64,000 nt of DNA, taken from Ginglymostoma cirratum. Taxonomy: Eukaryota. The notes beneath the pieces were generated by a model, which made no database searches, was not told where the DNA came from, and saw only the letters and a list, made by a program, of their open reading frames with translations. The stretch is taken from the NCBI GenBank assembly GCA_024137785.1, contig JAHRHZ010000030.1, positions 5,372,220 through 5,436,219 on the forward strand, written 5' to 3'. Positions 5,289-29,755 of the stretch are shown here, piece after piece. Position 1 is the stretch's first letter; each line of letters opens with the position of its first letter. Position numbers and translations under genes: made by a program.

Positions 5289-5359
5289 TTTTAAATGTAA
5301 AGAAGATTGTGAGAATTAGTGGTAGGTCTGAAAATTAGGAACATCTCAGGAACCAGTAA

Positions 5360-7760
5360 AGATGACTAAAAAAGGAGAAAACAGACAATTAGAATATGCA
5401 AGGAACAAATATAAAACAGATCATGAAAACTTCTACAACTGTATAAAATGTGAGTAGCAAAAATAGAGGATTAGACTAAGAAATTAATAAGAAAAACTAG
5501 GAAATGGCAGAGGTTTTGAATAAATATTTTGTATTTATTTTCACAGTAGACAACACTAAAGCATCTCAGTAATAATAAACCAGAAAGAAAAGGGCAGAAC
5601 TGAATTCAATCACTATGGCTAAAATGCAAATCAATGGGAATAAGGACTAATAAGTCACTGACCTAATGGTTTGCATCCTTTGATCATAAAAGGGGTGGCT
5701 GCAGGAATTGTAGATACCTTGGTCATAATCTTCCAAAATTCCTAGATTCTGGAAAGGTTCCAGCAGATTGGAAAACCACATATGCAACAAAACAAAGAAT
5801 TGTCGATGCTGGAGATCTGAATCAAAAACAGAAATTGCTGGTAAAACTCAGCAGGGCTGGCAGCGTTTGTGGGAAGAAAGCAGAATTAATGTTTCCAGTC
5901 CAGTGACTTTTCATCAGATTTGGGGAGGGTGGATTTCTTATCCTGGGGTCCTTGATCGCAAGGAATGCCCACCACATTTTCTGTTTTTGTCACATATATA
6001 ACATCCTTGTTATGATGAAGACAGAAAGTAAGAAACTTTAGGCTAGCTTGTCCAACATCTGTCATTGGGAAAATGTTGAAATCTATTATTAATGAAGATG
6101 CAGGAGGACATTTAGAAAATCTCATTAGAATCAAGAGGGCCTTGGGAAATGGTTACCTCCATTGATTAAATGGCTAGCATGTGATCAGATTAAGGGCAAA
6201 ATTTGGGATTGAGTCCCAATCCTGGATATGGTTGACTCAGGGTTTACCTCCAGACTCATTTGTAGTAAAAAATATACAGTACCTTGGTGTGATTCAGCAA
6301 ATAATGACCAAGGACCTGTCTTCAAGCAAAGAAATTAAGAAGAATACAATCAAGCAGAATTAACATGGTTTTATGTAAGTAAAGTTACATTCAACAAATC
6401 TATTGGCGCTCTTCGAACATGTTTTAGGCACGGTGGATAATGGGAAACCAGGAAATATAGTGTATTTTGATTTCCAAAAAGCATTTGATAGGGTAGCACA
6501 TAAAAGGTTAATGTACAAGAGCTCATGATGTTAGGGTCATGTGTTAGCATGGGTAAAATTTTGTCAAAGTAATAGGAAACAGAAGTGAAAGTTGGGCTTG
6601 CCAAGCTGTAAGTAATCAGGGCCTACAGGAATCAGTGCAAGGACCTTAACTATTTGCAATTATAAATGATTTAGCTGAAAGGACTAAGTACAATTAATGC
6701 TCAACTTGCTAATGACACAAAGATAGATAAGAAAACAAATTTTGAGGAGCACACAAAAGATGGAACTTAACGTAAATAATGGGAGTCTTGTTTGCCAGCT
6801 GAACGTCTGACAAGTGACCTACCGTTTACTTTCGGTAAGGTCCACCAAATGTAGCAGCAATAAGCAACTTAACTAAGTAGTGGGGCTTTCTTGGGATCAA
6901 AGACCCAAGGGGAAGAAATCCCATGCCCCTCCCCAAAACCTAAGGGCTGCTGATCATTAGAGGACTGCTATGCACAGCTAGGCAGCATCACTTCGATTGA
7001 GGTGGCTGCTGCTGGAATAGTGTTGGTCTTCCTATCTCAGGAAGGGTGCTCTTCGTGTTGAGGGAGTGCAGCAAAGGTTTACCAGACTGATTCCTGGAAT
7101 GGCAGGATTGATGAATGAGGAGAGGTTGAATCGGTTAAGATTATATTCGTTGAAGTTTGGAAGAATGAGGGGGGAATATCTCTTAGAAATCTATAAAAAT
7201 CTTTCAGGACTAGACAGGATAGGTGCAGAAATGATGTTCCTGATGATTGGTGAGTCCAGAACCAGAGGTCACAGTTTAAGGATATGGGGTAAACCATTCA
7301 GGACTGAGATGAGGAGGAAATTCTTCACCCAGAGAGTGGTGTGAGCCTTGGAATTTGCTATCTCAGATAGCAGTTGAAGCCATTACATTGTATGATTTCA
7401 ACAAGGAGTAGGATATATCACTTGGGGCTAAGGGGATCAAAGGATATCAGGGGAAAAACAGGAACAGGCTAATGAGTTGGAAGATCAACAACAATCATAA
7501 TGAAACATAGAAAATAGGTGCATGAGTAAGCCATTCAGCCCTTTGAACCTGCATCACCATTCAATACGATCATGACTGATCATGTAATCTCAGTACCCCA
7601 TTCTCACCCTCTATCCATTCCCCTTGATCTCTTTAGCTGCAAGGGCCACGTCCAGCTCCCTCTTGAATATATGTAATGAACTAACCCCAACAGCTTCCTG
7701 GATAGAACAGGCTCGAAGGACTGAATGGCCATCTGTTGGTCCTATTTTCTATTTTTCTAT
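5360..7760 (+). mobile_element. CR1 LINE fragments (ORF2 RT and 3' end), interrupted by a family-2 repeat at ~5788-5920
   Basis: ORF 7066..7344 QRFTRLIPGM...RTRGHSLRI...FFTQRVV is typical of the CR1 ORF2 C-terminus. DFQKAFD motif near 6467; gaatggcc...cctatttt 3' tail. Confidence 0.82.
5788..5920 (-). mobile_element. Solo family-2 terminal repeat with a hammerhead motif
   Basis: Minus strand reads tCTGATGAaaagtcactggactgGAAACATTa. Confidence 0.78.
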
Positions 7761-10442
7761 GAGCCAGACTTTTTTATTGACCACGAAAGAAGAGTACAGG
7801 TGACCAGAACTAGAAAATATCGCATGATTTGACAAAATTTCCAACATTCCTGGTTTGCTTTGGAATCCCCAAGAATTAAAATTAATCTGTTGCGCACTGC
7901 TGTGAATAAGCTACTAGGAGCGCATGAAAATAATGTTTCTTTTAAAATTTTCTTTATTCACTTTTGTTTACTAGTTTTAATAAATATTGGTGTTAAGGAG
8001 AAAAGTCCGCTTGATTAAGTGGGCCAGTTTGAGGCAAGAATGGTGAAACATCCAGTAATACATTTAACCACAATCGCAAGCCCTTGAACTAAGCAATTAA
8101 CATGTGGTATTTAATGCTAATTTGAAGTACATTAATAGTCATTCCTTTGTGGTGATTTGTGTAACTATGTCTAAACACAAAGTTGGAAAACATTCTTGAT
8201 CACTGGGCACTATAGAAGTTATAATTGCTCGTGAACTGCACGTTTGATATCAGGCATGTTTTTGTAGCAAGGTCATGAAAGTAGACCAAAAGGTTTCTTA
8301 AAAAGGGCTGGGGACGAAATTCCACAAAAAAGCCCAGAACCAATATTACATTTCTCTTGCATTCAGATAATCTACTGTTTTTCACTTGTCCTGTAAATTA
8401 GCAGGTCTAGTTTCAACAGCACCATCGGAAATTAAACGAGATGGGCCTGCCCCCATAGAAGATTACAACATGCCTTAAAAGATCACTTCATTATGATAGT
8501 GACAAGTCTGATAATGCAATAAGCATTATCAGTAGCTGAACAAAATCATCACGACAGTAGCTTAACGTAAATAATATGATAGAAATACAACATCTCTTAA
8601 AGTCTTAAAACAGGAGAAGCAATAATAATCTTAGCAGTGAAATGGCCTATGACCAATGACGCTCCCATTAGGTCAACGGCTGAATTTGTCAGGTCCTATT
8701 TCATCATTTTGGAATTCATCAATACTACTAAGAGCTTTTCAAGGCTGACAACAGCCTGATTAGGATTGCTTGAAGGAACTGCAGGAGGATATAGAAGGAG
8801 CCATGAGTAAAGTTTTTACACTTAACACAACGTAGAGCAGGGAAGAATAAGGCTGTTGCGTCTGCCTCCATGTTAATTCGGCCAGCTGCTGAAGGCCTGT
8901 GCTTGGTCCCCTGCAAATCACTTTTACCCCAATTCAACCGGTTAGTCCATAAGAAATAGAAACAGGAGTAGACCAAACAGCGCCTCAAACCTGCTCTGCC
9001 ATTCGATAGGCTGATGGCTGATCCAACAATCCTCAAAAATACTTTCCTGCTTTTTCCCTTTCCCCAGAACCCTAAATTCCTTTACTGGTTGGGCCCTGGC
9101 CAGCTGTGTCATGATCTGAAGCTCTCTGCAATAAGGCCAAGTTGGGGTGGTCCTCAGGCCTACCATTTCCAGGTTATGATTCCAGCAGGCAGCCTAGTTC
9201 ATACTGAGAAAGAATACACTAATGAAATGAGCCCCACTGGACTCTGCAAAACATAAACAGCAATTCAGCTACAACAAACATGCTCAATAGCAGTTCAACA
9301 ATATGAATAAACAAACAGCAGCAAAAATGAATAAGAGCAGTCAAAGGCTGCCTGTAGAGAACCAATTGCCTGCCTTCCTCCTCAAGCTGTAAATGGAAGG
9401 CTTCATTGTTAGTGTCTGGGAAGGCAGGTGGTGCAGCAGAAATATCCACCTGATTACACACTACCTTGACGTTATTTCATTGAAAGTCAAATAAGTGGAA
9501 AATTGACAAATTCTACAATGGGTGGCTGATCTGCTCTGCCAGATCACTGCTTGGGCACTGAAGATAGAAATTTAACAATGATGTATGGTACCAAATTTCT
9601 GCAAAGGAGAAGAAAATACTGAACATTAATTTTAAAATAAAGTATGTTCAATTTTGCATTGCTGGTTACTTCATGTGATTTGTCATTATCACCTTGAAAT
9701 TGCTGCTGTGATGAAACCTATTGGCATAGGTAAATATACTGAGATGTATAACTGCAAACTGCAGCAAAGTGTTACTTCAAGCAGCTGCTTCTGTGTCAGT
9801 GCAGGTCATTCCTTAAACATAAATAGCAATGATTTCATTCAGTAAAACAGTCCAGAAACTCTCACGGGTAGTAACAACACAGCTATGATGACAATGACCA
9901 TTGCCTTTCTGGCCCGCCCAAGGCAATTATGGAGTCTTCAACAAACTAGACTTGACAAGTGAAATGCGAATCTTCTAATATATGTGTATTTTTAGTGCTC
10001 AAATCATTATATCTGTTGATATTTTAAATGTCTATTTATTTAATCAGAAATATTCAGCTCTGAAAAGGAGTTTTATCTCTCACTAAACTCACATTGAGAA
10101 TTCTAAATAGTCATCTTACTTTCACATTGTGAAAATTAAGAATGAATTGATTGTGTTTTAGTCATTCTTGTTTTGCCTAAAATCTAGATCAGAAAGATGG
10201 AAGATATGAGAAAATTCCCTCATGGCTAAAACCTGAGAGATTCTTGATGCCTTTTATGTTACAATACTTATATTCACGTCATGTTAAGAATTAAACTCAT
10301 TTTTGCTTGTTGAAAATAAAACCAAGCATACACAAAATACAATGCACAATGATCTCCTTGCAATGAATGCGTGTCCCCTGCTCAGAATTATTGATATTTT
10401 TAACATCAGTTCAAATAAAGCAACTAATTTTTTTAAAAATCC

Positions 10443-10766
10443 AGTCATAGAATCCCTACAGTGTAGAAGCAGGCCATTCAGCCTAGAATCTACACTGACC
10501 CTCCAAAGAGCATCCCAACCAGACCCACCCTACTTTCTTGTCCCTGTAACCCTGCATTTCTCATGGCTAATCCAACTATCTTGCACCTCCCTAGATATGT
10601 TGGGCAATTTAGCATGGCCAAGTCACCTAACCTACACATCTTTGGACTGTGAGAGGAAACTCACACAAACACAGGGAGAATGTGCAAATTGCACAACAGA
10701 CAGTCACTCGAGGCTGGAATCAAACTGTGGTCCCTGGCAGTGTGACATTTCTCCACTATGCTGCCC
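10443..10766 (-). mobile_element. HE1-like tRNA-derived SINE
   Basis: Homologous to 23651-23970, with a CR1-like tail ...acactgtagggattcta. Confidence 0.82.
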
Positions 10767-11104
10767 CAAAATCAGGTATTTATTCAACTCTACATTAGAC
10801 AATCCCTATGCGTGGTTCTCAAAATCACATCCTGTAGTAACAACTGTAGTTTCTTTTATTGGAGGTGGGGGTTTTTATGGATGTGTACAGGTCTTGCTCC
10901 ACTGATAGTAATAGCTTTATAGAGAGACAGATTATGAAAACAGGGATCTTATTGTGAAACATCAAAATAATGATTTAGCCTCAACTCAACTAATTTTTAT
11001 CTGAGAGTCACTTTATAAAAAGGTGAGAAGGCATTTGAAATGATGCAGACAAGATTTATCACAACCATTCCAGGAATTTGTCATTTACAGAAGGCAAAAT
11101 AGGA

Positions 11105-11250
11105 AGGACCTGAAGAAAGGTCACCGGACTCAAAATGTTAACTGTTTTCTCTTTGCGGACACTGCCAGACCTGTTGAGTTCCTCCCAGCAATTTCTGTTT
11201 TTGTTTTTGTTTGTTTCAGATATAAGCATCTGCAGTTCAGTGTTTAATTT
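11105..11250 (+). mobile_element. Solo family-2 terminal repeat, degenerate hammerhead
   Basis: cCTGAAGAaaggtcaccggactcAAAATGTTa followed by the family-2 tail. Confidence 0.72.
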
Positions 11251-11329
11251 TGAGGTAAGGCGATTGGAAAGATGTGTTCAAAATCATAAGGAGTCTACAC
11301 AGTGTAGAGAAACACTTGACCATACAAAT

Positions 11330-13650
11330 CGGTAGCAGGAATAGGCTATTCCACCCCTTGAGTCTGCTCCTCTGTTTAATAAGATCATGGTTGATCTGAT
11401 TTATTTAGATTTTTAGATTTTATTGTCACAACTCAAGTACAGGAGTACAGTGAAAAGTATATAATGTCGCCACCATCTTAGGTACCAAGGTACCTAGGGT
11501 ACAAAAATGCTTAGGTACAAAGTAGTGAGAGAAATGAGAGTTTAAAAATTAAGCATTACTACATAGAATAGGAGGAAGATAAAGAAATAGGTAATTGTTC
11601 ACATTGAAGTGTGGACTTAAGATTACCATTCTCACCAACCTTGATAAACTTTCAACCGTTTGTTTAACGAAAAACTCTCTACTTGTGCTTTAAAACTATT
11701 AAAGGACTCTGCTTCCATCTTTTCAGGGAGAGTGTTTCAAAGAGTCACGACCATCTGGGAGTAAAAGGTTAGTCTAATGGGAAATCCCTGGTTTTTAAAT
11801 TATCACCTCAAGTTCTAGATTGTCCCATACAGAGAAACATCCTCTCCACATCTGCACTGTTAAGAGCCTTCATGATTTTGTCTGTTTCAGTTAAGTTGTT
11901 ACTTTTCTGAACTCTAGTGGACACAAGCCTAAGTAAAAAGCAAAAAGAAACAAAAACAGAAATTGCTCAAAAAAGATCTGGCAGCATCTGTGGGGAGAAA
12001 TCAGTTGATTTTTTGGGTCCAGTGATTCTTCTTCAGGAGTCTGTGTGCGCGCGCGCGTATGCATGCATGTGCCTAGCCTATCCAATCGTACCTCCTGAAG
12101 CATTAGTTCAGAAAACCTTCACTGAACAGCTTCCATTTCATTTACATTCTCCTTGCACAAGGTGAGCAATAATGTACACAGGACTCCAGAAGTGGTTTCA
12201 CCAGTGCCTTGTATAATAGCAGCATAGCCTTGCTACTTTTGTATTAAATTCCCCTTGTGATTAGCCATCATAATTACTTGCTGTACCTCATTATAACCTC
12301 TTGCGACTCATGTGCAAGGACACCCAGATCCTTCTGCATCTCAGATGTCTGCAATCTCTCACCACTTACATAATGCTTTTCTTTCTCTTCTCTTCTCTTC
12401 TCTTCCTGCAAAACGAACAACTTCCACATTTTCCTGTTTGTCACATTTCTCACCGAACCAATCAATATTTTTTGTCACGTCCTTGTATCCTCTTCACAAC
12501 TTATTTGCCTACCTCCATTTGTGTTGCCAGCAAATTTAGCAATCATACCTTCCACCCCTTTATCTAGGTCATTTAGATAATTTATAACAGTTGAGGTCTT
12601 AGCAACACTTGTGGCACAGCATTTTCGCTAATGTGTCAACTTCAAAAAGATCATTACAATTACTCTCTGCTTCCTATTAGCCCGTCAACCTTCCATTCAT
12701 GCCAATATGCTATCCAATACACAATGAGATATTATTTTCTGCAATCACTTTTGATGTGGCATTATATCAGATGCCTTCTGGGAATGCAAATTCAGTACAA
12801 CCATCAGTTTTCCCTATACCCATACATTGCGTGCTATCTCAAAAGAACTTCAATAGATTGATAAATCTTGATTTCACTTTCATGAAACCTTGTTGACTCT
12901 GCCAAGTTATAAGTGCTCTGCTATAACTTCATTAATAACAGCTAATATTTTCCTGTAATTAATGTTGACCTAACTGATCTTTAGTTTGTTTTCCATCTCC
13001 CTCCCTTTTTAAAAAAGGGGTTACATCCATTGTCTTCCAACGTAATAGAACCATACCCTAATCAACAGAATTTTGGAAAATTAAATTCAATACATTAACT
13101 ATCTCAGTAGCCCTTTCTTTCATGACCCTAGGATGAAATCCATCAGGACATGGGAACTTGTCAGACTGCAACTCCAACAATTTTCGCAGTACTATATTTC
13201 TGGTGATTGTGATTTTCCCCAAGGTCCTTTCTTTTTTCCTTCTCCCGACTTAGCAGTATTTCTGGGATATTGCTTATATCTTCCCTAGTGAAGACGTGTA
13301 GATGCCGGTGTTAGACTGGGATGGACAAGGTCAGAAGTCACCCGACACCAGGTTATAGTCCAAAAGTGACTTCACTTGACGAAGGAGCAGCGCTCTGAAA
13401 GCTTGTAATTTCAAATAGACCTTTTGGACTATAACTTGGTGTCGTGTGACTTCTGACCTCTAGAATGAAGACGAATGCAAAATACCTATTAATTCATCTG
13501 CAGTTTCTTCATTTTCCATTATTCCTCCTCCAGTCTCACTTCCTATTCTGTAATGTCTGCCACTGCATCTCTAGTGACAAATCCTTTGTCTTAAAACTTG
13601 CTGATTTCTTTTTAAGCCAACTGTTTTTAATGCCCTCGTTATTGCCCCTA
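11330..13650 (-). mobile_element. Decayed CR1 LINE with nested small insertions (family-2 repeat ~11940-12037; family-3 hairpin ~13297-13460)
   Basis: ORF 12274..12465 contains QKDLGVLAHESQ. CR1 3' tail near 11335-11400. Confidence 0.7.
13297..13460 (+). mobile_element. Family-3 hairpin element with a hammerhead-like motif in the loop
   Basis: Inverted arms 13328-13366 and 13421-13459. Loop contains TTGACGA-aggagc-agc-gctct-GAAAGCTT; tgaagacg is repeated on both flanks. Confidence 0.75.
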
Positions 13651-14769
13651 ATTTTTAAAAAAAAAGTATTTTTAAACTCACTTCTTTCTCCTCCAAACTG
13701 AATATTAAATTTAGTGATATTGTGGCTGCTGCTACCTAGAGGACCTTCTCTATGAAATCATTAATTAATCCTGTTTGCATTAACAAAAGATTGAGAACTG
13801 GAAGACACTGATTTAACGTAGGTGGCCAAAGAACAATGTGACATAAGAAGAGATTTTTTTTAATGCAATGTCTGGTTAGAAACAGGAACACAATTTCTAT
13901 GAATGTCTGGGAGGGGGAATTCAGATAGGATTTTAAGGGAAATATATACAAAAACACTTGAAAAGAACTTTGCAGGCTACAGAGGGATCAGCACGACCAA
14001 CTTAGTTGCTCTTTTGAAAAGTTAGCATGTACACAACAAGGCAAATGGCCTCTATCCATGCTGAACACATTGTTGCTTTTAAAGAGTAGATGAAAAAAAG
14101 CTAGACTATTGTTTTGGACAGAAATTAAGGCATGTTGCATTTCAAGGCATTAATACAGTATGTTCCCTCAAAAAATTAACATTGCAGTTTCATGTTTGGA
14201 ACAGTTTATTAACAACATGATGCTGCTCATATAGCTGTGGTGTGAAGAAGATTGCTCGATTTCTCTGTTTGTTTGGTACTGTGTGTTTGCTGCGAGTTCA
14301 GTACAAGTCAGGGAATATTTCACAATAAACAGCCATTTACAGAGTAAGTCCATTATGGAAAATACATTTCAAGGAATGGGGTAGCATTTTGGAAGAATTC
14401 CATACTTCTGTTCTTTCACTGAAATTAAACTGATTTTTAAATAGAAATCCAAGGTCCCCCTAAGATGTAATAGTACACGTGTCAATCCACAAAAAGGCAC
14501 AGGAGACTATAGTCAGTCAGGCTCGTTGTGCTTCAAAATGCAACAAATGACAGGCTCTAATAGCTGAGGTGCACAGGGGGAAAAAAAAAAAAACACAGAT
14601 GCAATGACTTTCATCCTTTTTAATAGTCTCTCCTAAATACAAGATGAGCAGTAACTTCCGAATTTATTAGTGGCACAGTCTTAAAGAAAATAAATTGTAC
14701 TAGTTCATATTGGCATTGGTCTGATTATTGAGAATGAAAATGAGTGACTAGGCTTTATTGCAGTTGAAC

Positions 14770-16060
14770 ATGCATTATCTCACTTTTAAAAGCTTCCCTC
14801 TTGCCAGAAATCCCTTTACTTGCACACAGCCGCCCCTAAAAATCAACTTTTGAAACTTCCTGTCTAATACCGTCAAAATTAGCCTTGCACCAACTTGCGG
14901 ACTAGGCCTATCCATTTCCATAATAGTTTTAAAACTAATAGAATTATGGTCACTAGTCCGAAAGCCGCACCCCACTAGCACCTCAGTCATTGAGTTGTAT
15001 AGCACTGAAACAAACTCTTTAGTCCAACTTGTCCAGGCTGACCAGATTACCTACCTAAATCTGGTCCCATTTGCCAGCATTTCACCCATATCCCTCAACT
15101 CTTCCTATTCATATACCCATCCAGATGCCTTTTAATTGTACCGGTCTCCACCACTTCCTTACTCATTCATTCCATACACACACCACACTCTGCATGAAAA
15201 GGTTGCCACTTGGGTGTTTTAAAATCTTTCCTCTCTCACTTCAAACCTATACCTTCTAGTTTTGGACTCTCCCGTTCTGGGGAAGAGATCTTGCCCATTC
15301 ACCCTATCCATGCCCTCATGATTTTTTAGATATATCTATCTATATCTCTATACGACCACTCTTCAGCCTCCGAAGCTCCAGGGAAAATAGCTCCAGCCTA
15401 TTCAGCCTCTCCCTATTGTCAAGCCCGCCAACATCCTTGTAAATCTTTTCTGAACCCTTTCAAGTTTCACAACATCCTTCCTGTGGCAGGAAGGCCAGAA
15501 TTGCATGCATTATTCCAATAGTGGTCGAACTAACGTCCTGTACAGCTGCAACATGATCTCCCAACTCCTATTCTCACTCAATGCACTGACCAATAAAAGG
15601 CAAGCATACAAAACACCTTCACTATTCTGTCTGTGTGACTCTACTTTCAAGAAACTATGAACGTGCATTCCTTGGTTTCTTTGTTCAGCGACGCTCCCCA
15701 GGACCTTACCATTAGATGCATACGTCCTGCCCTGATTTGCTTTTCCAAAATGTTGCACCTTGCATTTGAAATTCAACTCCATCTGCCACTCCTCAGCCCA
15801 CGTGATCAAGGTCCCATTGTACTCTGCAGCAACCTTCTTCACTATCCACTACACGTCCAATTCACTTGCCCTGCCTTATTTCCCTAAAGGATGGGGAGTT
15901 TTGCCCCCTTCTCTAGAAGGGCCATCCACATTTGAGAAAGTTGTCCTGAACACAATTTCCTCCCCATCCAAGCCCTTAACACAATGGCAATCCCAGTCTA
16001 CATTTGGAAAGTTAAAATCCCCTAATGTTAGGACCCTCTTATTCTTACAGCTCTATGATC
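14770..16060 (-). mobile_element. Nested CR1 LINE fragments (endonuclease region split by an RT/3' fragment)
   Basis: ORFs 14775..15005 (SDHNSISF) and 15510..15842 (WAEEWQMELN, LYRTLVRPLLE). Confidence 0.8.
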
Positions 16061-17874: not shown

Positions 17875-18089
17875 CTAGGTTTAAAAAAAAAGTTAGAAGT
17901 TAAACAGTGTAATTATTCAATTACTTAAAAACCAATTTTTTTTTAAAGAAACACCTTTGACCATTTTCATTTCAGAGGTAAATTACGCAAGTCCTAAGTT
18001 ATGTACAAAACTGAAGAGTAAACTGCCCTATGGAAAGTCGGTTCAGAAATCAGCAAGTTATTGAAACGGTAAAAATAACAAAATCTTAC

Positions 18090-18507
18090 CTGTAGCTGAT
18101 TAGCACAAGAACCACAGCAAACCATGTGTCCACAGGGGCAGAAGGCAGTATTAATCTCCTCACCACAGCAGACCATGCACAATAATGCTTCTTTCAGTTT
18201 TCGAATCTTTTCTTGAAGCACCTGACTTTGCTGGCAGCTCTCCCCTTCACAACTATTACAGTTCAATTCATGCTCTGAAGATTTAAGTGGAGAGTTCTGG
18301 CCATCTCGATTGTGTGGAACAAAGTCTACAATGCCAGCATGATACAAAGCTCTTCGTGTATGGTCATACACCTCCTTGGATGTGCGTTTGATGTCAAAAA
18401 CGTATTTCTTACCCAGGTTGATATTTTCATTGAGAAACAAAGAAGCAAGATGGCCCTTGAAGTCTCTGCTGTATTGCATCATGACAGCATTGGTCACAGT
18501 ATCACAC
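18090..18507 (-). CDS. MYLIP: MYLIP exon 6, F3c, linker and RING N-half ([15 protein letters not shown]...[30 protein letters not shown])
   Basis: Acceptor ctcttcag| and donor AG|GTAAGA. 418 nt with the C3HC4 RING signature; overlaps ORF 17994..18497. Confidence 0.97.
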
Positions 18508-18724
18508 CTGAAGAGGATATTAATTCAGTTAAGCTCCAAATGATGATGATAATAATGATAATGATGATAATAATAAGTTTAAAAATGTGATGTTCTAGAA
18601 AAAAAGTACATCATATTGCTGAGACTGTTCCAAATAACTGTTTTAAAGTCACAGAAGGCTTTTGGTTTTTAAAAGCTAAAACTACATTAGTCTATTGGAA
18701 GCCCTGCTTCAAAAATTTTTTTAA

Positions 18725-18945: not shown

Positions 18946-19221
18946 TGTCCCCATCAAAAAACAAACAAAAAGGACCAAATATAACAGCCAATACAAAACC
19001 AGAGAAGTTGTTTAAAAGACTATTGCTCTTCAAATGTGAAGATATTACACAAGATGTGTACACTTCTTACACGGGACTCAATATTTCAGCTTCACGAAAA
19101 GCATCAACTCTCTCAAAAGAGTAAGAAATAGAACTACAGGAAGACTTGGAATGACTACAACACTCCTTGTAGTTAACAAAGGTCCACAGGAATGAAAACC
19201 AGAAGTGCAGTAATAGCATAC

Positions 19222-19386
19222 CTGTAAAATGCATGGGTTTCAGTTATCGCACGATAAAGGGCACTTGCTGCTCTAGTGCTGATCAGCTTCAATATTAGGA
19301 CTATACTGCTGCCAGACTCCCTTGTGATTGTAAGGTAAACATTTTTTGCAGATTGAGTAGCCATCTGGATAATAGGGTATGAAATC
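19222..19386 (-). CDS. MYLIP: MYLIP exon 5, FERM F3 ([18 protein letters not shown]...[14 protein letters not shown])
   Basis: Acceptor gtcctacag| and donor AG|GTATGC. 165 nt. Confidence 0.96.
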
Positions 19387-19694
19387 CTGTAGGACAAAAA
19401 TCAGAACATTCAAGAAGTTCATTGAAATCAAAAGGCAATTTCAGTTACACATCAACATCTTCCTAATTAAACATATTTCTTTTAAAAAAAAAAAACAAAC
19501 CACTCAGTTGACAGTCAGCAGCAGAGGAAAGGGAAATGAGACTGGACTATGGCAGCTGCGCTCTTCAGAAAAATGCTCTTAGTTTAACCATTATGATAAC
19601 TGTCCAGTAGTCAACTTTACAAAAGGATTACATGATCTAAAAACATACGCAAAAATAAAAAAATCCTTAGAGTTAAACTAAAAAGTTAACTAGC

Positions 19695-19892
19695 CTGTTA
19701 ATTAGGTTCAAGTTTTCTTTGCAGACAGATATGCCATCAGGACCCACTCCAATCATCAACTTCTGTCCATCACCATCCTTTACCGAATGCCATTCCACAC
19801 CATAGTGTTCCAGCATGCATGCAATCTGGAGAAGCCGGTACTCAGCTCTGCATGGACTCATTCCTTCCAATTCCTTGTGTTTCACAACAATA
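19695..19892 (-). CDS. MYLIP: MYLIP exon 4, FERM F2/F3 ([12 protein letters not shown]...LEHYGVEWH...IGVGPDGI...NLINR)
   Basis: Acceptor ttcaatag|, 198 nt. An in-frame join to exon 5 requires a GC donor (AG|GCTAGT) at 19694. Confidence 0.92.
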
Positions 19893-20014
19893 CTATTGAA
19901 ACAAGAGCAATACTTGTATTACTTAAAAGGGTAATGAGGAAGGACAATGAGAAGTCACTGCTCCCTGTTACAAAGCATGCTACGAGAAAGACAAAAAACA
20001 AACACTTAATTTGG

Positions 20015-21141
20015 GGATGGCCTCATTCTTCAAGGACCGCAACTTCTCCCCCCAGTAGTCGAGAACACCCTCGACTGTGTCTCTTGCAACTCATCCCTCA
20101 CACCCCGTCCCCGCAATAATAACCAAAAAAGAATCCCCCTCGTCCTCACGTACCACCCCACCAACCTCCGGATCCAACGCATCAGCCTCCGACACTTCTG
20201 CCATCTGCAATCAGACCCCACCACCAAAGACATTTTTCCCTCCCCACCCTTGTCTGCTTTCCGGAGGGACCACTCCCTCCGCGACTCCTTGTCCGATCCA
20301 CACTCCCCTCCAGCCCCACCACACCCGGCACTTTTCCCTGCAACCGCAGGAAGTGCTACACCTGCCCCCACACCTCCTCCCTCACCCCAATCCTAGGCCC
20401 CAAGAAGATTTTCCACATCAGGCAGATGTTCACCTGCACATCTGCCAATGTGGTATACTGCATCCGCTGTACCCGTTGTGGCTTCCTCTACATCGGGGAA
20501 ACCAAGTGGAGGCTTAGGGACCGCTTTGCAGAAACACCTGCGCTCAGCTCGCAACAAACAACTGCACCTCCCAGTCGCGAACCATTTCAACTCCCCCTCC
20601 CATTCCTCAGACGACATGTCCATCCTGGGCCTCCTGCAATGCCACACGATGCCACCCGAAGGCTGCAGGAACAGCAAATCATATTCAGCCTGGGAACCCT
20701 GCAGCCCAATGGTATCAATGTGGATTTCACAAGCTTCAAAATCTCCCCTCCCCCAACCGCATCCCAAAACCAGCCCAGCTCATCTCCGCTTCCCTAACCT
20801 GTCCTTCCTCTCACCTATCCCCTCCTCCCACCTCAAGCCCCACCCCCATCTCCTATCATCCCGCCCCCTTGACCTGTCTGTCCTCCCTGGACTGACCTAT
20901 CTCCTCCCTACACCCCCACCTACACTCACCTTTACTGGCTCCATCCCCGCCTCTTCGACTTGTCTGCCTCCTCTCCACCTATCCATCCTCTATCCGCCTC
21001 CCCCACTCTCCCTATTTATTTCAGAATCCTCTTCCCCTCCCCCATTTCTGATGAAGGGTCTCGGCCCGAAACGTCAAGCTTTCCTGCTCCTATGATGCTG
21101 CTCGGCCTGCTGTGTTCATCCAGCCCCACACCTTGTTATCT
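20015..21141 (+). mobile_element. 5'-truncated PLE (GIY-YIG + 3' repeat with intact hammerhead) in MYLIP intron 3, antisense to the gene
   Basis: ORF 20426.. reads FTCTSANVVYCIRCTRCGFLYIGETKWRLRDRFAE. 12-bp TSD cacttaatttgg at 20003-20014 and 21142-21153. Confidence 0.93.
21045..21078 (+). ncRNA. Minimal type I hammerhead ribozyme motif
   Basis: ttt-CTGATGA-a-ggg(tctcgg)ccc-GAAA-C-GTC-aag. Complete catalytic core, predicted cleavage after 21075. Confidence 0.8.
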
Positions 21142-21395
21142 CACTTAATTTGGTCTACCCATTCCTTCCCAAAATAAAACACTTTGCATGCAGGTAAGCT
21201 TACTTTAGTGGCACTTTCTTTTAAAATAAAGGCAATGATTTTAAGAGAAAGGAAAATACAGAAGCATAGTAAACTTAAGTTACAAGCTTAGATTGGCAGA
21301 AGGATTTGTCAAAACTCTTGGAAAAGGTCAGGCTTATTCAAACTTGCTAGAACAAACAAGAGGAGGCTGACCACAACTTTATCCAGCTGACTCAC

Positions 21396-21581
21396 CTGTT
21401 CAAAGTGGTAGTGTTTAATTCATTCGCACAGAGGTCTTCATAACAATACTTGGCAGTGTTTTGATTGTAGTCTCCGAATTCTACTTGTGCTAGAAGTGCA
21501 CTCAAGTCCAGAGCCTGCTCTGGTGAGCAGAGCAGACGTCCGTTTAGGAGGTCATCCCGGACATGCAGAAAAAATTGATGC
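21396..21581 (-). CDS. MYLIP: MYLIP exon 3, FERM F2 ([18 protein letters not shown]...[15 protein letters not shown]...)
   Basis: Acceptor ctccag| and donor AG|GTGAGT. 186 nt, phase 2/2, with the FERM QxEFGDY motif. Confidence 0.95.
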
Positions 21582-23650
21582 CTGGAGTTTGGGAGAGGAT
21601 AAAAATGACTTGAAGAAAACTCATTCCATAGAGATTTTAGAATGTTTATTCAGTACAAATCCTTACTACAGTTTAGGCACTTGTGGGGAAAACAACGTCC
21701 AGGTGTAGTTTGTTAATCATACATTTTAGTAATGTTTGTTTAGAGACAATAGGAGAACGACCACCCAATTAGTATTACCACCTTGGAATTCAGTTGAACT
21801 TATGTTTTAACCAAGAAGGTTTAAAGCTTTGATTGATTAAAAATAAACTGCTTTAAGCACATTATGTTCAGTAATTCCTACTGAACTTTTAACCAATATG
21901 ATACTTATGCTAATATTTCTATGTAAGATTCAGGAATTAGCCAACACTGGGCAGGACAAGGGGCAACAGATTGGATTTAAATTCACCCACCGTAATTTGA
22001 ATTCCCCAAGTTAAAGTTTGTTTTTCCACACTGTGCAAGTTCAATTTCCCACTTTTAAAGGAAACCACAGTAATGACTTCTTTAGGAGTAAAATCTATGC
22101 AACCAATAGAATAGCTTCCACAAATATAGAAGATCTGTCAAGGTCTGTTCAGATAGATAAGCAAGTTTTGTTGCTCCATAATAAGTTTCAGAAACTGATG
22201 AAGCTGGGCAACTTCAAACCCAAGCAATTTCTAGTGAAATGCATTCTTTTGATGCGTATCCTCTCCATCACCATGAATACAAAAACACTGATTTATGCAC
22301 TACATTAAGCAACAGTATTTAAAGTTTTCACATAACTTCAGTGAAATTTCAGTCAACTATGATATATTCAGAGAGTGGCAGATGGTATTTGGCACACAGT
22401 CAAACTGTTTCTGAGAAATGAAAATTGGGAATTTACCTTGCTAAGCAAGAAACAGAAGATAAACTAGCTCCATTACACACAACTTTGAATTCAAAGTGGA
22501 ACGTCATTCCAATTTCAATAACAGTAGAGGGCAATCTGCACGCAATGCTTTGAAGCACAATAGAGGAACCAGAGGAATGCAAAATAAATGGTACACTGTC
22601 AAATTCTAGAGGGCAAAAACACTGCCACGGAAGGCAGTGTGGGAAGGGCAAGACATGAAACAAAATTAAGTTAAGGGAGAAATGAGTCCATGTGAACTTG
22701 GGGACAAGGGAGCGAAGGGAAACAACAGTTCAGACACCGTCTAAAGAAAACAAAAGGCAAATGCAAGAGCAGACAAATCATTTAGGCTGGCCCCTGGAAA
22801 AGAGTATGGCAATAGCATTAAAACTTGGTACCCAAAGTAATTATCACAAATGCCATAAGAATCCCAAAAGTAACAAATTAAATATTGGAAGATCAACAGT
22901 ACGTGTGAAAGTTGGTTATTATCTCATTTAGTTAAAAGGCATAATAACTCCAGAACACCATATCTGCAAGAGGTTACTCTCGGTCAAATGTTAACAATGT
23001 AAACAAAAGGTTACTAAAGGACAAGCATGCATCAACTGGCAACAGAAAAAGGAAACAGTTTCAATATCACAAAACCACAGACAATCAAACATTAAGTTAC
23101 ATGACTAACCAGAAAATACAAAAAAAAATTCCAGAATCCAGTGAATAACCCAGAGTTCAGCAGGCTAATAATTTCAATATTGAATAAAAAGATTAATTCT
23201 TAGCGATGCCCTGCTTTCTCAAATGTCATTTAACATCAGTACCTCAAACAAATTCTAAATCAGACCACCTGCTATAAGAGCCAATATAAAAGGATGATAC
23301 CTCCTCTACAAAGCAAAATTGCACTTTTTTCCAGCATGGATTCCAGAACAGGCCCACAGTTATTGTCAATTCTTCAACAGCTGCCAAACAGTTGGAAGCC
23401 ACAGCGAATGCACAGTGAACCCTGAGAGTGCTATGCCAGAAAAAGTTATCTACAATTGCTCACTCACATTTTGTGCAAGATGACAGTTTATGTACAGATA
23501 AAAGATAAAGTTCCAGGATTCCTTCAGGGTCAGAATTAAAACCAAACGTTTCAAAATGTTCAGGGCAGTGAATTCAGTTTGCTTTGAGCAACTGATTTGT
23601 AATTTTTTTTCCTTTACACTGAATGGGATACACCCCATGGATCAGGGTTT

Positions 23651-23970
23651 TTAGAATTTAGAATCCCTACAGTGTGAAAACAGGCCCTTCGGCCCAACAA
23701 GTCCACACCGACCCTTGGAGCATCCCACCCAGACCCATCCCCCTATAACCCACACATCCCTGAACACTATGGGCAATTTAGCATGGCCAATCCACCTAGC
23801 CTGCACATCTTTGGACTGTGGGAACGAAACCGAAGCACCCGGAGGAAACCCACGCAAACATGGGGAGAATGTGCAAACTCCACACAGACAGTCACCTGAG
23901 GCTGGAATCGAACCCAGGTCCCTGGCGCTGTGAGGCAGCAGTGCTAACCACTGACCCACAGTGCCACCCC
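23651..23970 (-). mobile_element. HE1-like tRNA-derived SINE in MYLIP intron 2 (well preserved)
   Basis: Head gggtggcactgtgggtcagtggttagcactgctgcctcacagcgccagggacctgGGTTCGATTCC has A/B boxes. CR1-type tail gggccgaagggcctgttttcacactgtagggattcta. Confidence 0.88.
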
Positions 23971-26106
23971 TGTTTTTTTTTTGGCAGACTGCAGTTTAAA
24001 CTTGACATTAAAAACCAGTCGATTTCAGTGATGCCTTTGCACTCCCACCTCTGTCCAATGTTTCGTCAATTATCGGATGAAATTCTAGAATAAGTCAGGC
24101 ACCTGAACAATTCAAAGTTCCTATCAGAAGGTGACAAAATCTAGATGGTCCACTTGCATGACTTCTAGTTCAACATTAGCACATTATGAATTGTCACTGA
24201 TGAAGGGAGCACTGAGCACCTCTTGGTCTAACATCCAAAAAATTTTTTAAAAAAGGACAAAATTCAACAGAAATACAAATATGTACAAAGTTTTCACTTA
24301 AAATACAGTAAAGACAAGTACAACGGAACAGCTGGAAAATGCACTATCAGCCAGACACCTTAGTTGGTAGCTATGACTCAATGGATAGGACTCTTGTCCT
24401 AGACTCAAAACACGCTGGACTCTAAATAATCAATCCAGTATGTGGATGTTAAGAACTTCCACCATTATTACAAAGCTCTTTAATGCCCTGGCTAATACTT
24501 AGTTCACAGCAAAAACAGATCCACCATACAGCTGTTTGTAGGATGATCAAAAGTCATGAAAGACATTACATAAATGTTTGTTGTGCTGGGAGTTGAAGAA
24601 AATAGTGCGACAATGAGACAGTATGTTAAATTGAACTGCCAGAATACAAGATATGATTCGTCCAAAAAAGTTTTGATCTCTGCCTGATTTGGACACAGCT
24701 TAAATGAAGTGAGCTGCTTCCACCATATCTAGTAATTTCTCTGACAACTAGCTAATTCAACAGCAAAAAATTAGAGACTAGATAACATACTTCCCGTTTG
24801 TCGATTTCAGGGAGAAACTGTTTTGGTTTGGCTGGGGAATAAAAATGCCTGCAGGCTTGCAGTAGGCTATATTCAACCATCCTGCAATTTTAGTTCCGAA
24901 ACCAGCGGGAAAAAAAACAAACATCTTGAAGCAAGAGCTACCAATCACAAAGCTACTTATTTTCTCACTGTACTATGGCCCAGTGGCAACACTGTGGGTG
25001 GCTTTACACCAGGAAGTAAATGGTCAGCAGACGTAACAACCAGTCAACTCACTCAAACGAAACGAAAAGTAATTTTTCTTTGTTTCACATTTTGTTAGAC
25101 TTGAAGTTTCTAAATATATTCAAATTCATTGGTGGAAGAGTGAGACCTGACATTTAAACAATTCGGGTTTGGATCAAATAAAATCGTCACAAGACAATAA
25201 AAACACAGCCAAGCAATAAAACCACGGACATTTAATACCAGAAGTTTATGCAAACCCTGGTGGCGGCATTGCTTCTCTCAATACTTAATTGAGAACTAAT
25301 TACAACAGACAGCATTTAATGGAGCTTGCACTGGGGAATAGTAGGGCAGAGTAGGACCACAGTTGTGCCAAAACCAGCAATGACAGAATTGTCCTCCCAC
25401 ATGCCCAAAGCTAAACAACAAGAAAAGTTTGCATTTTTCTGCATTAGGTTAAAAATAATGCCCTGTCAATTCAGTCAAACCAAAGTCTTTGTAGATCAAT
25501 AGTTATTCATACAAGCTTTAAGAAATAAACCATTCTGTCTGGTTTCAATTCTTGTACTAACACTACACAAACTGCACTTTTGGAAAACTATTTCAAGCTT
25601 TCACTCGTTTACCACTATTCTTCAAACAAAGGAATTAAAAAGATAAATAAAAAGTAATTTGAAATCATGCAGGACAACCCATTCTCGAAGAATCCATTTC
25701 AAAACATTTTTCGTGAACTATGGTGGATGTTCGAATCTGACATTTACCTCAATTAGTTAAAACAGAATCAAAATTGCCGATACCACACCGACACGCATTT
25801 CAGCTCAGCTAAACCCGAGATTTAAACAAGTTCAATGAAATAAGCCCGGAGCGCTAGGACCCAGTAGTGTCTGATTACAGTTAGAACGCTAGTTTCTGCT
25901 ACAATGACCCATAATAACACCAACAGCGAGGTTACTATCGGTCATCTGGAAGTACAAGAACAAACTAGCAAGGAATCATTAAGTTTGTTCAAGTCGATAC
26001 AACGAGACTTAAAAAAACCACATGCGAAACGCAAAGTAAAAAGATTAAATATCAGACTTTCATTTAAGCCAAGAAACAAAAAGCTCCAATTTATTAAGAA
26101 ACACAC

Positions 26107-26297
26107 CTAGTTTGCTCCTGAAGTAAAAGATGAGGTTCCACAAAAAATTTAACTCGGAGTTTGAATCTATAAGGAGGCATCCCTTCGATCTGTTGAGAGA
26201 TTCTGTTCCTCAGGTTCAGCCACAGAGTCTCCCCCTTGTTCGCAGAGTACTGCAGACCCAAATAGTCATCCTCTATAATGCCGAGCCTGTGGCAGAC
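26107..26297 (-). CDS. MYLIP: MYLIP exon 2, FERM F1 ([17 protein letters not shown]...[17 protein letters not shown])
   Basis: Acceptor ttctcttgcccag| and donor AG|GTGTGT. 191 nt, open frame with FERM motifs WLNLRNRI and RVKFF. Confidence 0.96.
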
Positions 26298-26399
26298 CTG
26301 GGCAAGAGAAAGGAGAGACCCCCCTTACACTATTTGAAAAAAGAATGATTGAACTACCGTCTCATCTTCCAAAATACACAGACTAATCCTCCCCACCTC

Positions 26400-27300
26400 T
26401 AAAATAAAAATAGAAAATGTAAACCCCAAAACAAAACGACAAATTCCCTCCGCCGCAACGAGAGTAGGAACCCGAGGCAAAACAAAGCAGAGGGTACTAC
26501 AATCCGTTAATAAGAAACTTAACTGGTTATAAACATGGGGAGGGAGGGCAGATTTAAAAACAATATCTACGTTAGAAAAGAATGTATCAATTCAAATGGG
26601 CAGTTCGGCTTTGGGAAAAAGTCCAAAGGACGTTACATCTGGTCCAAGCTCTAATAATCAATTTGGGTCTTTTGATCAGCGATAAATTGAGGGGTATTCG
26701 CGGGGGAGAACGGACAAGAATGTGGAGTCAAGGCCACAAACGAAACCTTCCCGAATGGCGGAGCAGGCGGGTGTGGAAACCGAATGGTCTATTCCTGCTC
26801 CTGACGATCCAGTGGCACGGAGAAATCCGGGGAAGTGCTGCGGGCCTTACCTGGTTCAGACAGTCCTCGCCGTTCGCTTTGGGATCCACCTCCACTTCCA
26901 TCACCACCGAGTCGGGCCTGGTCACGTAGCACAGCATGGCGATACCAGGACTCTCGGGGATCCGGATCACTGGCCGTCACTCTCCTTTTCGATACTGCGG
27001 ATAGCACCCCACTCCCCTCAAACTGGCATCAAGGCTCAGCCGGACTTGACCAGCCTAGGCCGCCGGTACCAAGCACTGGGCCCTGTTCACATACAGCTGT
27101 CCAGCTCCAGGCCTTAACCCGGTAGGAGCCCCCGGCTTTGAGTTCTTGGACCTAACAGCAGATTGTACCCTCACACACAGCCCACTCTCCGAGTTCTAGA
27201 CGCTCCGTTCCAGTTTCTTTCCACAAATACCCGGCTTGACGTCAGCTAGACGGCAGAAAACCAATTGCAGAAAAGCATTACTGTTCTCTGACCAATAGGA
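26400..27300 (-). promoter_or_regulatory. CpG-rich MYLIP promoter/exon 1 region with a CRE and two CCAAT boxes
   Basis: CpG density is visibly elevated. TGACGTCA at 27237-27244; CCAAT at 27261-27265 and 27292-27296. Confidence 0.7.
26851..26937 (-). CDS. MYLIP: MYLIP/IDOL coding exon 1 ([29 protein letters not shown])
   Basis: gccATG at 26937. The 87 nt encode the characteristic MYLIP N-terminus. Donor AG|GTAAGG at 26850, phase 0. Confidence 0.97.
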
Positions 27301-27529
27301 AAACATGTAGCTTGAAGGGAGAAACAGAAAGAAACTGGATCGAGTCTCTTCAAATGAGATCACCGGCTCTCTGTGGGATCTTTATCCCTGAGATCACCAG
27401 TGTTCTCAGTGAGATCTGCCACAGTGGGGTTACAGGCTCTTTCCGTGGAATCTCTAATCAGCGAGTGGCTTGTAAGAGGAAACTGGTGTTACACAATGCT
27501 ACCACTGAGCATCAGAAGTGAAGGGAGAG

Positions 27530-28400
27530 TACATCATAGTCATACAGCATGGAAGCAGACCCTTCAGTCCAAACTAAACTAGTCCCACGTGCCTGCGCTT
27601 GGCACATAACCCTCTCAACATTTCTTATTCATGTACTTATCGAAACGTCTTTAAAACGTTGGTAGCAATACTTGCATCCACCATGCCACTCCTCAACCCA
27701 TTGGCCCAATTGATAAAGATTCCTTTATAATCTTAGATAACCTTCTTCACTGTCCACTATGGCATAAATTTATGTCATCTGCAAACTTACTAACCATGCT
27801 TCCTAAATGCTCATCTGAATCATTTATATGAATGACAAACGACAGTGGACCCAGCACTAATCTCTGCAGAAGCATTATGTAATTAGTTGTCCTAAACATG
27901 TCTATGCTGTTTTAACTTTATTAATCTACATTTGTCCACTGTTACTGTTAAGTTTGTCCTGGATTATCCTCCCAAAAATTTTCCAATTACTGACTTGCCT
28001 GCACTTATCTGGCTATGATGGACTTATCATTGCATTTTTTGAAACAAAGCTATAATATTTACAATTCCCAAGCCTTCAGGTGACAGCTCTGTACCCAAGG
28101 AGGATGGAAAGATTATAGCCACTGTCTTTGTATTTCCACTCTTACTCTTCTGACAACTTTAGATTCAGACAGCTTTCTGATACTTCCTCTTTAATCAATT
28201 TTTAGCTCATCTAGTTTCTCAACTACCTTCTCTTTCACTATGACATTATCAGCAGTTTCTTCCTTGGTAAAGACAGAACCAAAGTACTCATTCATTACCC
28301 CCAGCATTTCGTCTAGCTGCATGTACGAATTGAGCTTCTATTCGTCGTCAGCCTTACTCCTGCTGTCACTGCCCCTTTAATCTGAATTTCTTTAGATTGT
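27530..28400 (-). mobile_element. Decayed CR1 fragments
   Basis: CR1 3' tail at ~27540. gtcatctgcaaactt is the reverse complement of KFADD. Confidence 0.6.
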
Positions 28401-29099
28401 CTCAGCATGATTCTTCTTTCTTAAGAGAGAGAAAATAGGAATTAAGTACTCAGTGAAAATGGGCAGATTTCTCAAAGAGAGACAGAAATAAGGAGAAGAT
28501 GGAGATTTAAAAAGAGCCCATTAACAGCAAAAGAGAGAATGAGGGACTATCCCATTTTAAGAGACAGTATTCAAGTTGATATAAACCCTATTGAGAAAAT
28601 ATAGGGACTAGTGAGAGCTTCTATTGTCTGAGGGATCAAGTAAGAGACCTTATTATGTTCTTCTTCCCTGTTGTTATTAGACTGCTGAATGGACTTATCT
28701 AACTTCAACTCTAATGGTGATCTTGCTTCTGCAGCTGTAACCTTGTTATCCTCGCTCTGTCTAAACACTCAATGATCTGTATGTCTTTGTATGTTGTGAT
28801 CTGCCTGTAGTGCTCGCAATACAAAACTTTTCACTGTACTTGGGTACATATGACAATAATGAATCAAATCAAATATGCAACAGCAATCTACTGATAGAAA
28901 TCGCATTGTAAGTTATAAGACAAAAGGAAGGGCCTAACAAAGAGAGAGAATGATTCAATTATGATTATTAGATGGTGAGATCCTGCTAAGTTAGAGACCT
29001 TTTTGGGAAAGATCCTATTGTGAAAAGAGAGCAAGATGAGGATATCCCAGCGTGAGGCAGATTGGAAAAGATTTATTCAAGAAAAGAGGGGGACAGAAA

Positions 29100-29755
29100 G
29101 CAAGAGACTACAGACTAGTTTGTTTGACTCTAGAATCTAATGTAACAAGGTTATAGCAGGGCACTTAAAGAATCTTAATGCAACGAGGCAGAGTCAACAT
29201 GGTTTTGTGAAAATGAAATTGTGTTTGATGTGTTTATTATTTATCAAGGAAGTAACAAGCAATGCTGTTCTGATGAATTGTCACTGGACTGGAAACGTTA
29301 ATGCTGTTTTCTCTTCACAGATGATACCAGAAATTCTGGACTTCTGCAACGATTTCTGTTTTTGTTTGTTTTGTATCTTCAGCACCTGCAGTTCTTTGTT
29401 TTGTTTCAGTGAATCAAGAGGAACCTGTATGTGATGTATTTGGATTTCTAGATTTGACAAGAAGCCAAGTCAAAGGTTATTCATACTGTCGACTCTAACA
29501 CATTTACAAAGATAGAGGTTGGTTAGTTATTTGGGGCAACAGCACATGCATAACTATCATTTTTGGGCTGACTAGATGTAACAAGCTGGATACCACAGGG
29601 ATCAGTGCTGGGGATTAAATTATTTACAAACTACATCAATTACCTGGATGAATGGATTGGATATATAGTCACTAAATTTGCTGATGATTTAAAAAGGTAG
29701 GTAAGAGATTAAGTTGTGAAAAGGATACAGGAGTCTGCAAGTGGATTTAAATGGT
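29100..29755 (+). mobile_element. CR1 RT fragment interrupted by a family-2 hammerhead repeat (29268-29409)
   Basis: QHGFVK, PQGSVLG and KFADD coding remnants. Confidence 0.72.
29268..29302 (+). ncRNA. Minimal hammerhead motif, family 2
   Basis: ttCTGATGA-att-gtc(actg)gac-tg-GAAA-C-GTT-a. Confidence 0.6.

Follow-up and report, generated by a model that had tools for sequence, protein, structure and literature searches.

The genome of Ginglymostoma cirratum contains repeats with a hammerhead ribozyme motif, and one stretch of 64,000 nucleotides (nt) raises the question of what these repeats are and why they share a fold. This stretch, hereafter the window, spans positions 5,372,220 to 5,436,219 (forward strand) of contig JAHRHZ010000030.1 in assembly GCA_024137785.1. 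An earlier note sorted its copies into three families (here F1, F2 and F3), which it took to be unrelated. It proposed that a loopless, self-complementary helix III, either ACGT or AGCT, forms between two copies and could keep dimerisation family-specific. Our analysis indicates that the repeats are very probably decayed fragments of the pseudo-long terminal repeats (pLTRs) of three families of Penelope-like elements (PLEs), with a minimal type-I hammerhead that is likely active only as a palindrome-paired dimer. The analysis directly observed the linkage to reverse transcriptase (RT) and GIY-YIG sequences, the family-level core and helices, the kinship of F1 and F2, one lineage with AGCT, and decay in the window copies. 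Genome-wide pattern counts given below cover the 4.36-Gb genome (289 contigs), and L with a number denotes a locus elsewhere in the same genome.

The motif and its Penelope-like carriers

The motif is real and well above chance. A descriptor blind to the bases after GAAA/helix III found 50 sites in an unbiased sample of 80 arbitrary 10-kb stretches (800 kb, of which 286 kb are N), versus 3 to 8 in each of five Markov-shuffled sets. ACGT is present at 29 of these sites and its CpG-decay forms ACAT or ATGT at 10 more. Family patterns read backwards gave 0 to 1 matches. At the family level the core CUGANGA...GAAA..UH is complete in F1, F2 and F3 (family sequences derived from 30, 6 and 41 native copies, respectively), including the two families for which the earlier note had left this point to be checked. 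One exact pattern of core plus stem matches 10,605 genome sites for F2 and another matches 116 for F3. The F2 helix II stem is GGGTC..GACCC, of which the agtc..gact quoted previously is a decayed form.

A single unpaired base lies between positions 9 and 10.1 in 41 of the 50 matches, in a scan that allowed 0 to 2. The extra A had been described as retained, and it is indeed near-universal in pattern-anchored copies (86/87 in F1, 59/59 in F2 and 85/85 in F3), though the patterns favour A. In the same kind of set the 10.1-11.1 pair is most often G-C in all three families. For the counts of helix pairs, copies were lined up on the core, as the MAFFT alignment shifted F3 by one column; helix II pair counts in these sets are inflated by the search patterns. 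An Rfam scan of the window gave 23 matches at E<=1, none of them to a hammerhead family.

F1, F2 and F3 are the pLTRs of PLEs, and the ribozyme of each family sits 3' of its own RT/GIY-YIG remnant. The F1 ribozyme lies behind RT, Cys-linker and GIY-YIG remnants, both in the window and at loci elsewhere with long open reading frames (ORFs). The F2 ribozyme lies behind a related ORF remnant at L099, L121 and L129. For F3, a search seeded with the ORF remnant of L142 returned 100 matches; of the 15 loci examined (L191-L205), nine contain RT pieces, 32-45% identical to F1. The PLE partners that the earlier note sought for F2 and F3 are therefore present as ORF remnants elsewhere in the genome. It had seen neither ORF in the window, and our comparisons agree: there, F2-linked ORF DNA matches only the F1 ORFs (64-70% alike) and F3-linked DNA gives no blastn match.

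A Pfam search of the window remnants gave no GIY-YIG match and only RVT_1, below the cut-off, so the endonuclease (EN) is called from motifs read by eye. RT and YIGET motifs share one stop-free frame at L259 (786 codons) and likewise at 5 other loci of 14. A sequence search of PDB with the RT remnant gave nothing useful. The linker peptides of F1, F2 (L121) and F3 contain C-x4-C-x2-C. A CX2-5CxxC zinc finger in the RT-EN linker is described as a feature of Neptune and Nematis (PMC8557442), and by this motif the F1-F3 linker is of the Neptune/Nematis type.

Because the ribozymes of all three families follow homologous PLE ORFs, the families are homologous and not unrelated as first supposed. 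F1 and F2 align throughout core and tail, and the sequences identify these two as sisters and F3 as a distant lineage. In a tree of 30 linker peptides F3 stands apart from F1 plus F2 at 100/100 and F1 is not separated from F2; the tree has no outgroup, its bootstrap is rough and two duplicate pairs in it are mislabelled through neighbouring insertions. Helix II and the flanks of F3 differ from those of F1/F2, as might be expected if the matches were due to chance or the fold had been invented three times independently. The 50 sites against 3 to 8 in shuffled sequence argue against this explanation and the homologous PLE ORFs, at a similar distance in all three families, refute it, which leaves it practically no chance of being correct.

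At L258-L271 several F1 loci retain stop-free frames of 580-840 codons, and F1 was thus active fairly recently. In most of these loci the 5' part is inverted and a direct 5' pLTR is absent. A fourth hammerhead family is found at L073:3492 (plus strand) and at L083 and L033 (minus strand). It has T as the extra base, a helix II of 5-7 bp, ACGT and a helix I of its own. The L073 copy adjoins an RT remnant that looks unlike the others and resembles Poseidon.

Some copies join sequences of two families. At L114:1330-1352 an F1 tail runs straight into an F2 element with its native 3' region and pLTR (region L114:1351-1500), and F1 pieces are joined to F3 tails at L154, L007 and L177. Insertion of one family into another, or template switching between them, may account for these joints.

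Helix III and pairing between copies

The ACGT/AGCT swap between families is real and is a single lineage event. Among the F1/F2-type stems with any C/G pair (93,704 genome-wide), 92,825 have ACGT and 25 have AGCT, while the single changes ACCT and AGGT together account for 854. AGCT is present in 1,609 of 1,682 F3-type stems; the two pattern sets overlap slightly. In copies unselected on helix III, ACGT was found in 33/48 of F1 and 25/51 of F2, and AGCT in 31/38 of F3. Most non-ACGT forms in these F1 and F2 copies are CpG decay, and single changes in helix III have founded no families.

Candidate exceptions were inspected and rejected. An AGCT subfamily within F1/F2 dissolved when 20 of the 25 matches were examined: nine are F3 copies, eight are F1 copies with a 6-nt deletion, two are true double changes and one is unclear. 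About two double changes to AGCT are expected by chance from the single-change rate. Both ACGT matches with F3 stems have F1 tails, which removes the candidate ACGT subfamily of F3. No AATT or ATAT family occurs in the first 100 of 1,641 matches. A second AGCT lineage was not seen either, all but about four of the first 100 of 535 matches having F3-type stems by eye. Since the AGCT sites examined almost all have F3-type stems or flanks, the swap represents one event on one branch. The covariation described in the earlier note is correct as a swap that kept the palindrome, and is not supported as repeated covariation. A single swap would land on a palindrome in 3 of 15 cases by chance alone, and the strong evidence for palindrome covariation is the published cross-species set rather than the one swap in this genome. 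In our reading, the difference between ACGU and AGCU reflects two old lineages and does not encode family identity.

The 6-nt deletion in F1 is recurrent (8 of the 20 loci, Table 1). It lies between short AA repeats and converts GAAACGTCAAGCTT to GAAAGCTT. ACGT can thereby become AGCT in a single step, without passing through a non-palindromic form, but the deletion pushes helix I out of register.

A minimal hammerhead of this kind was defined by Cervera and de la Pena in 2014, who argue that it acts as a dimer (PMC4209133). Emergent features reported there are a base between 9 and 10.1, a G10.1-C11.1 pair, a palindromic 15.2-16.2 and families "full of covariations". By our count of the text of its Fig. 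S3, 41 of 56 motifs are loopless (CG 29, GC 5, UA 5, AU 1, CA 1). Monomers were reported not to cleave and dimers to cut weakly. A palindromic stem III was already noted by Perreault in 2011 (PMC3088659), and a review (PMC6765202) cites Lunse, Weinberg and Breaker (RNA Biol 14:1499) for dimer cleavage of small PLE hammerheads that likewise have a palindromic, very short stem III. This type of swap is therefore already published for other animals, as are the dimer model, the extra base and a palindrome without a loop, and the families described here are a new example. They share with the published motifs the CUGANGA core, the absence of loop III, the presence of more than one family in a genome, a predominance of solo copies, and head-to-head pairs. 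They differ in a helix II of 4-5 bp and in copy number: F1/F2 have more than 92,000 exact sites, whereas about 4,000 are reported for coelacanth and about 9,000 for frog. The 56 rows of the Fig. S3 text include no cartilaginous fish (PMC4209133). Our literature search found no report of a shark PLE hammerhead, subscription papers, Repbase and Dfam being outside that search and the supplement of a retrozyme preprint possibly listing chondrichthyan motifs. The present data add three very abundant families (four with the fourth family) to the described class and confirm the published structural rule.

With no loop, positions 15.2 and 16.2 are adjacent and can pair only with another molecule. By prediction the motif therefore cleaves RNA only when two copies pair, likely via the palindrome ACGU or AGCU. 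On this the earlier note reasoned soundly, and it matches the published model (PMC4209133). Helix I is about 4 bp long and swapped between families (U-A, U-A, G-C, A-U in F2 versus C-G, A-U, C-G in F3). Its length is 4 bp in F2 (each pair formed in 6-7 of 7 copies), 3-4 bp in F3 (each pair in 11-12 of 16 copies) and 2-4 bp in F1, depending on the subfamily; for the published motifs it is 4-5 bp (PMC4209133).

Several observations weigh against our reading of these repeats. Helix I of F1 is weak, with pair 2.3-1.3 present in only 16 of 36 native copies. In a large F1 subfamily in which AG follows the cut site, helix I measures only 2 bp (43843, 45079 and 51947 in the window, and genome-wide). 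Part of F1 may thus never have cut. Minimum-energy structures from RNAcofold gave a double hammerhead in 0 of 6 copies, and predicted F1 monomers fold the core onto the cleavage site; folding programs do not model the hammerhead core. A clear direct 5' pLTR beside the ORF was found in none of the 14 long-ORF F1 loci (a small, selected set), and hence a transcript with two ribozymes was not found. Finally, non-CpG positions of F1 differ less in the core than in the tail (1.8% vs 6.7%), a difference that may reflect subfamily differences and alignment-end bias and does not prove neutrality. The CpG of helix III, though, decays as the neighbouring CpG does in F1 (20/120 vs 18/122); the F2 set in this core/tail comparison is mixed with F1 copies.

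In the AG-tailed F1 subfamily the core can pair with the strand of the cleavage site in an inactive hairpin, yet the subfamily amplified widely.

These data bear on the view that in these families the motif has ceased to cut and now serves as a hairpin for protein binding or RT recognition, with the palindrome as inherited baggage. Helix I is weak or broken in about half of the native F1 copies despite massive amplification, alternative monomer folds are predicted, and for other PLEs the reported activity in vitro is low, with an absence of reads that stop at the cut site (PMC4209133, PMC11167929). Nevertheless, the catalytic positions, G10.1-C11.1, the UC/UU site, the palindrome and the swapped helix I have all been kept across RTs that are about 35% identical, and we regard a non-cutting hairpin as rather improbable.

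The other proposal is that helix III is a family-specific dimerisation code selected against cutting of RNA across families. ACGU and AGCU form only two of four canonical pairs, F3 has kept AGCT beside far more abundant ACGT families, and no test of heterodimers was found in a literature search on hammerhead and Penelope (subscription papers were outside its reach). However, only four codes are possible, ACGT is common to F1, F2 and the fourth family, CG is used by 29 of the 41 loopless motifs in the Fig. S3 text (PMC4209133), and this genome holds one swap event. Helix I is also sufficient by itself. In the predicted strand-swapped dimer the mean contiguous helix I pairing is 2.3-3.7 bp within families, 2.0-2.8 bp between F1 and F2, and 0.1-1.0 bp between F3 and the others. 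Helix I thus already blocks F3 with F1 or F2, which would leave F3 isolated with or without the swap, and incompatibility is predicted only for F3 versus the rest. Dimerisation specified by helix III, as suggested in the earlier note, is therefore not upheld for F1, F2 and the fourth family, and we consider a selected code very unlikely.

Copy ends and a putative start site

The majority of copies lack native upstream sequence (51/87 in F1, 52/59 in F2 and 69/85 in F3; pattern-anchored, partly selected loci). In short copies the family match stops at -3 (F1), about -5 (F2) and about -9 (F3) of C3. In the unbiased sample plus the window, 36 of 95 F1 and 40 of 82 F2 profile matches start at -15 to +5 of C3 (F3 is represented by six matches only). 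Seven F1 and four F2 matches start within 4 nt of the cleavage site, where there is no peak, and matches end mostly 60-115 nt past it. The short copies begin ahead of the core and do not cluster at the cleavage site, so that uncut RNA was their likely template. The inserted copies retain an uncut site.

The family sequences have a TATA-like box at -35 (F1), -33 (F2) and -38 (F3) of C3, matched without a shuffle control, and an initiator-like CA at -4, -4 and -7, at spacings from the box of 31, 29 and 31. In all three families the initiator-like motif falls where helix I begins and where the short copies have their 5' ends, and helix I starts at or just past the predicted +1.

We propose that transcription starts 4-7 nt before the core, some 30 nt behind the TATA-like box in the pLTR. 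On RNA that has not been cut, the RT of the element would start in the tail, some 60-115 nt beyond the cleavage site, and would copy back to the 5' end of the RNA, giving rise to many short solo copies and head-to-head pairs. Cleavage would probably be slow and dependent on both dimer and protein, a side or control reaction not required for copying, and selection on active source elements may have kept the palindrome.

A comparable system is PAc, a Poseidon element of Anolis carolinensis studied by Frangieh in 2024, for which the paper reports that protein assists cleavage, that RT initiates in the tail and that ribozyme mutants do not affect insertion (PMC11167929). Its pLTR hammerhead is followed by a tail of about 110 nt and its RT starts on uncut RNA, which the copy ends described here fit. 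PAc differs in belonging to the Penelope/Poseidon clade, with an ORF that starts in the ribozyme (PMC11167929), whereas F1-F3 have the Cys linker of Neptune/Nematis type. The pLTR of Pen2a_Av of Adineta vaga has, as here, a putative TATA box and an initiator-like TCACT, inverted pLTRs and target duplications of 8-10 bp; its TATA box and initiator are separated by 20 bp, and the start as described in that paper is not tied to the first base of a ribozyme helix (PMC3846280). Beyond PMC3846280, no link between a TATA box or start site and the PLE ribozyme was found in the literature outside subscription papers.

A dimer ribozyme at the 5' end of the transcript could serve as a dose-sensing brake, in which abundant RNA pairs, loses a capped leader of about 32-36 nt and leaves translation and copying. 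The TATA-like boxes, the spacing to the initiator-like CA and the position of helix I at the predicted +1 are consistent with this idea, as are the homology of short copies ending close before the core and the uncut site of inserted copies. Insertion of the anole element in vitro was unaffected by ribozyme mutants (PMC11167929). The start sites and cut ends are predictions from sequence, and the promoter is putative. Raw reads of two runs compared with L114 represented family-wide copies, with strands alike and no pile-up of starts or ends, in a library type blind to caps and cuts. The T's at F1/F2 junctions could be accounted for by a preference for AT-rich targets, and the boundary could be a splice acceptor, as F1 and F2 have pyrimidine tracts and AG upstream. 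In Penelope of D. virilis the intron ends at the 5' end of helix I (PMC4209133) and the promoter is TATA-less (PMC2377424), which makes a splice boundary a live rival of a transcription start. We consider the brake unlikely.

The boldest version of this idea would be a concentration-sensing, self-decapping switch in three PLE lineages whose transcripts begin with helix I, some 30 nt downstream of a TATA box. The switch would curb the spread of each element, and a barcode of helix III and helix I would spare the rare AGCU lineage from cleavage by the far commoner ACGU families. We would give such a switch only a small chance. F1-F3 provide natural ACGU/AGCU pairs and a predicted start flush with helix I and are suited to testing both restraint and cross-cleavage.

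Copies in the window

The window copies are decayed, and these repeats are dead retroelement ends; in genome annotation the motifs should be labelled as such and not as host ribozymes. F1 is as first described, with core and ACGT kept in 7 of the 11 window copies that have a visible core (Table 1). None of the six F2 copies cited in the earlier note is a complete ribozyme and only that at 29270 reads GAAACGTT. The cited F3 copy at 13376 does have AGCT; its core is no longer complete, as it starts with TTGACGA (C3 lost) and carries T at 11.1 (C11.1 lost).

Table 1. Hammerhead copies of the window and related features at other loci.
Feature	Position	Strand	Description
F1 short pLTR copy	2379..2511	-	core start 2508, core and ACGT intact, begins 3 nt before core
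F1 5'-truncated element	3451..4927	+	RT end, Cys linker, GIY-YIG remnant, then pLTR; core 4785 decayed (G8 lost, ATGT)
F2 head-to-head tail pieces, partial cores	5092..5295	both	5178-5092 minus, 5175-5295 plus
F2 short copy	5777..5922	-	core 5917 reads GAAACATT; helix III decayed to ACAT
F2 short copy	11109..11213	+	11110 reads AAAATGTT; G12 lost, ATGT
F2 short copy	11930..12038	-	12036 reads AAAAAATC; 3' half of core destroyed
F3 insertion, head-to-head	13297..13465	both	inverted tail piece (minus) and ribozyme copy 13369-13463 (plus), core 13376-13404, AGCT
F1 truncated element	20086..21192	+	linker, GIY-YIG remnant, TATA-like box 35 nt before core, intact motif 21048-21075
F2 short copy	29265..29392	+	sole cited F2 copy with GAAACGTT; helix II base broken, G10.1-C11.1 lost
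Longest F1 remnant	32121..33951	-	508-codon stop-free frame, RT motifs, linker, EN remnant; pLTR core 32218 (G12 lost)
F2 short copy	40045..40159	+	40045 reads AAAAGGCT; G12 and palindrome lost
F1 head-to-head copies	41160..41827	both	core 41297 minus, ATGT; 41310 plus, intact; further copy beyond N gap
F1 truncated element	42918..43993	+	EN remnant; motif at 43843 intact
F1 head-to-head inverted pLTR pair	44553..45219	both	cores 44661 minus, 45079 plus
F1 short copy	51944..52087	+	motif 51947 intact; 8-bp direct repeat on each side
F2 head-to-head pair	60272..60493	both	core 60392 minus reads GAAATGTT, ATGT; tail piece 60417-60493 plus
F1 window copies with core and ACGT	2508, 21048, 41310, 43843, 44661, 45079, 51947		2508 and 44661 on minus strand
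TATA-like box and initiator-like motif	window 21013-21047; L114:1468-1500; L142 upstream of 1501
Loci with F1 6-nt deletion	L143, L147, L151, L153, L156, L158, L159, L160

The RT frame of the longest F1 remnant matches Pfam RVT_1 at E 0.0014, below the cut-off. On the two sides of the F3 insertion, at 13289 and 13466, stands a direct repeat of 8 bp that is likely a target-site duplication; 8-bp duplications were found at this insertion and at one of eight other short copies tested. Copies in the window are dispersed or head-to-head and show none of the head-to-tail tandem units of non-LTR retrozymes. Animal non-LTR retrozymes, reported in one chondrichthyan, have type-I hammerheads related to those of PLE pLTRs (bioRxiv 10.64898/2026.07.22.740005). 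Retrozymes form tandem arrays, whereas the present copies lie scattered as single or inverted ends linked to ORF remnants.

Within the inverted F1 pLTR pair, 44566-45174 consists of 302-nt arms that are 96% complementary with 5 nt between them and would give a long RNA hairpin if transcribed. The top Rfam matches of the window, to miRNA models, fall on this pair (44.6-45.2 kb) and were rejected as artefacts of the palindrome.

The segments 7021-7344, 50740-51186 and 23651-23995 look like the RT ends of long interspersed nuclear elements and a common repeat resembling a short interspersed nuclear element; a Pfam search of 7021-7341 gave no match. On the minus strand, 17994-18524 contains an exon of the E3 ligase MYLIP/IDOL, with the end of FERM and RING (E 6e-35 to PDB 6qly), and the hammerhead copies sit within or around this gene.

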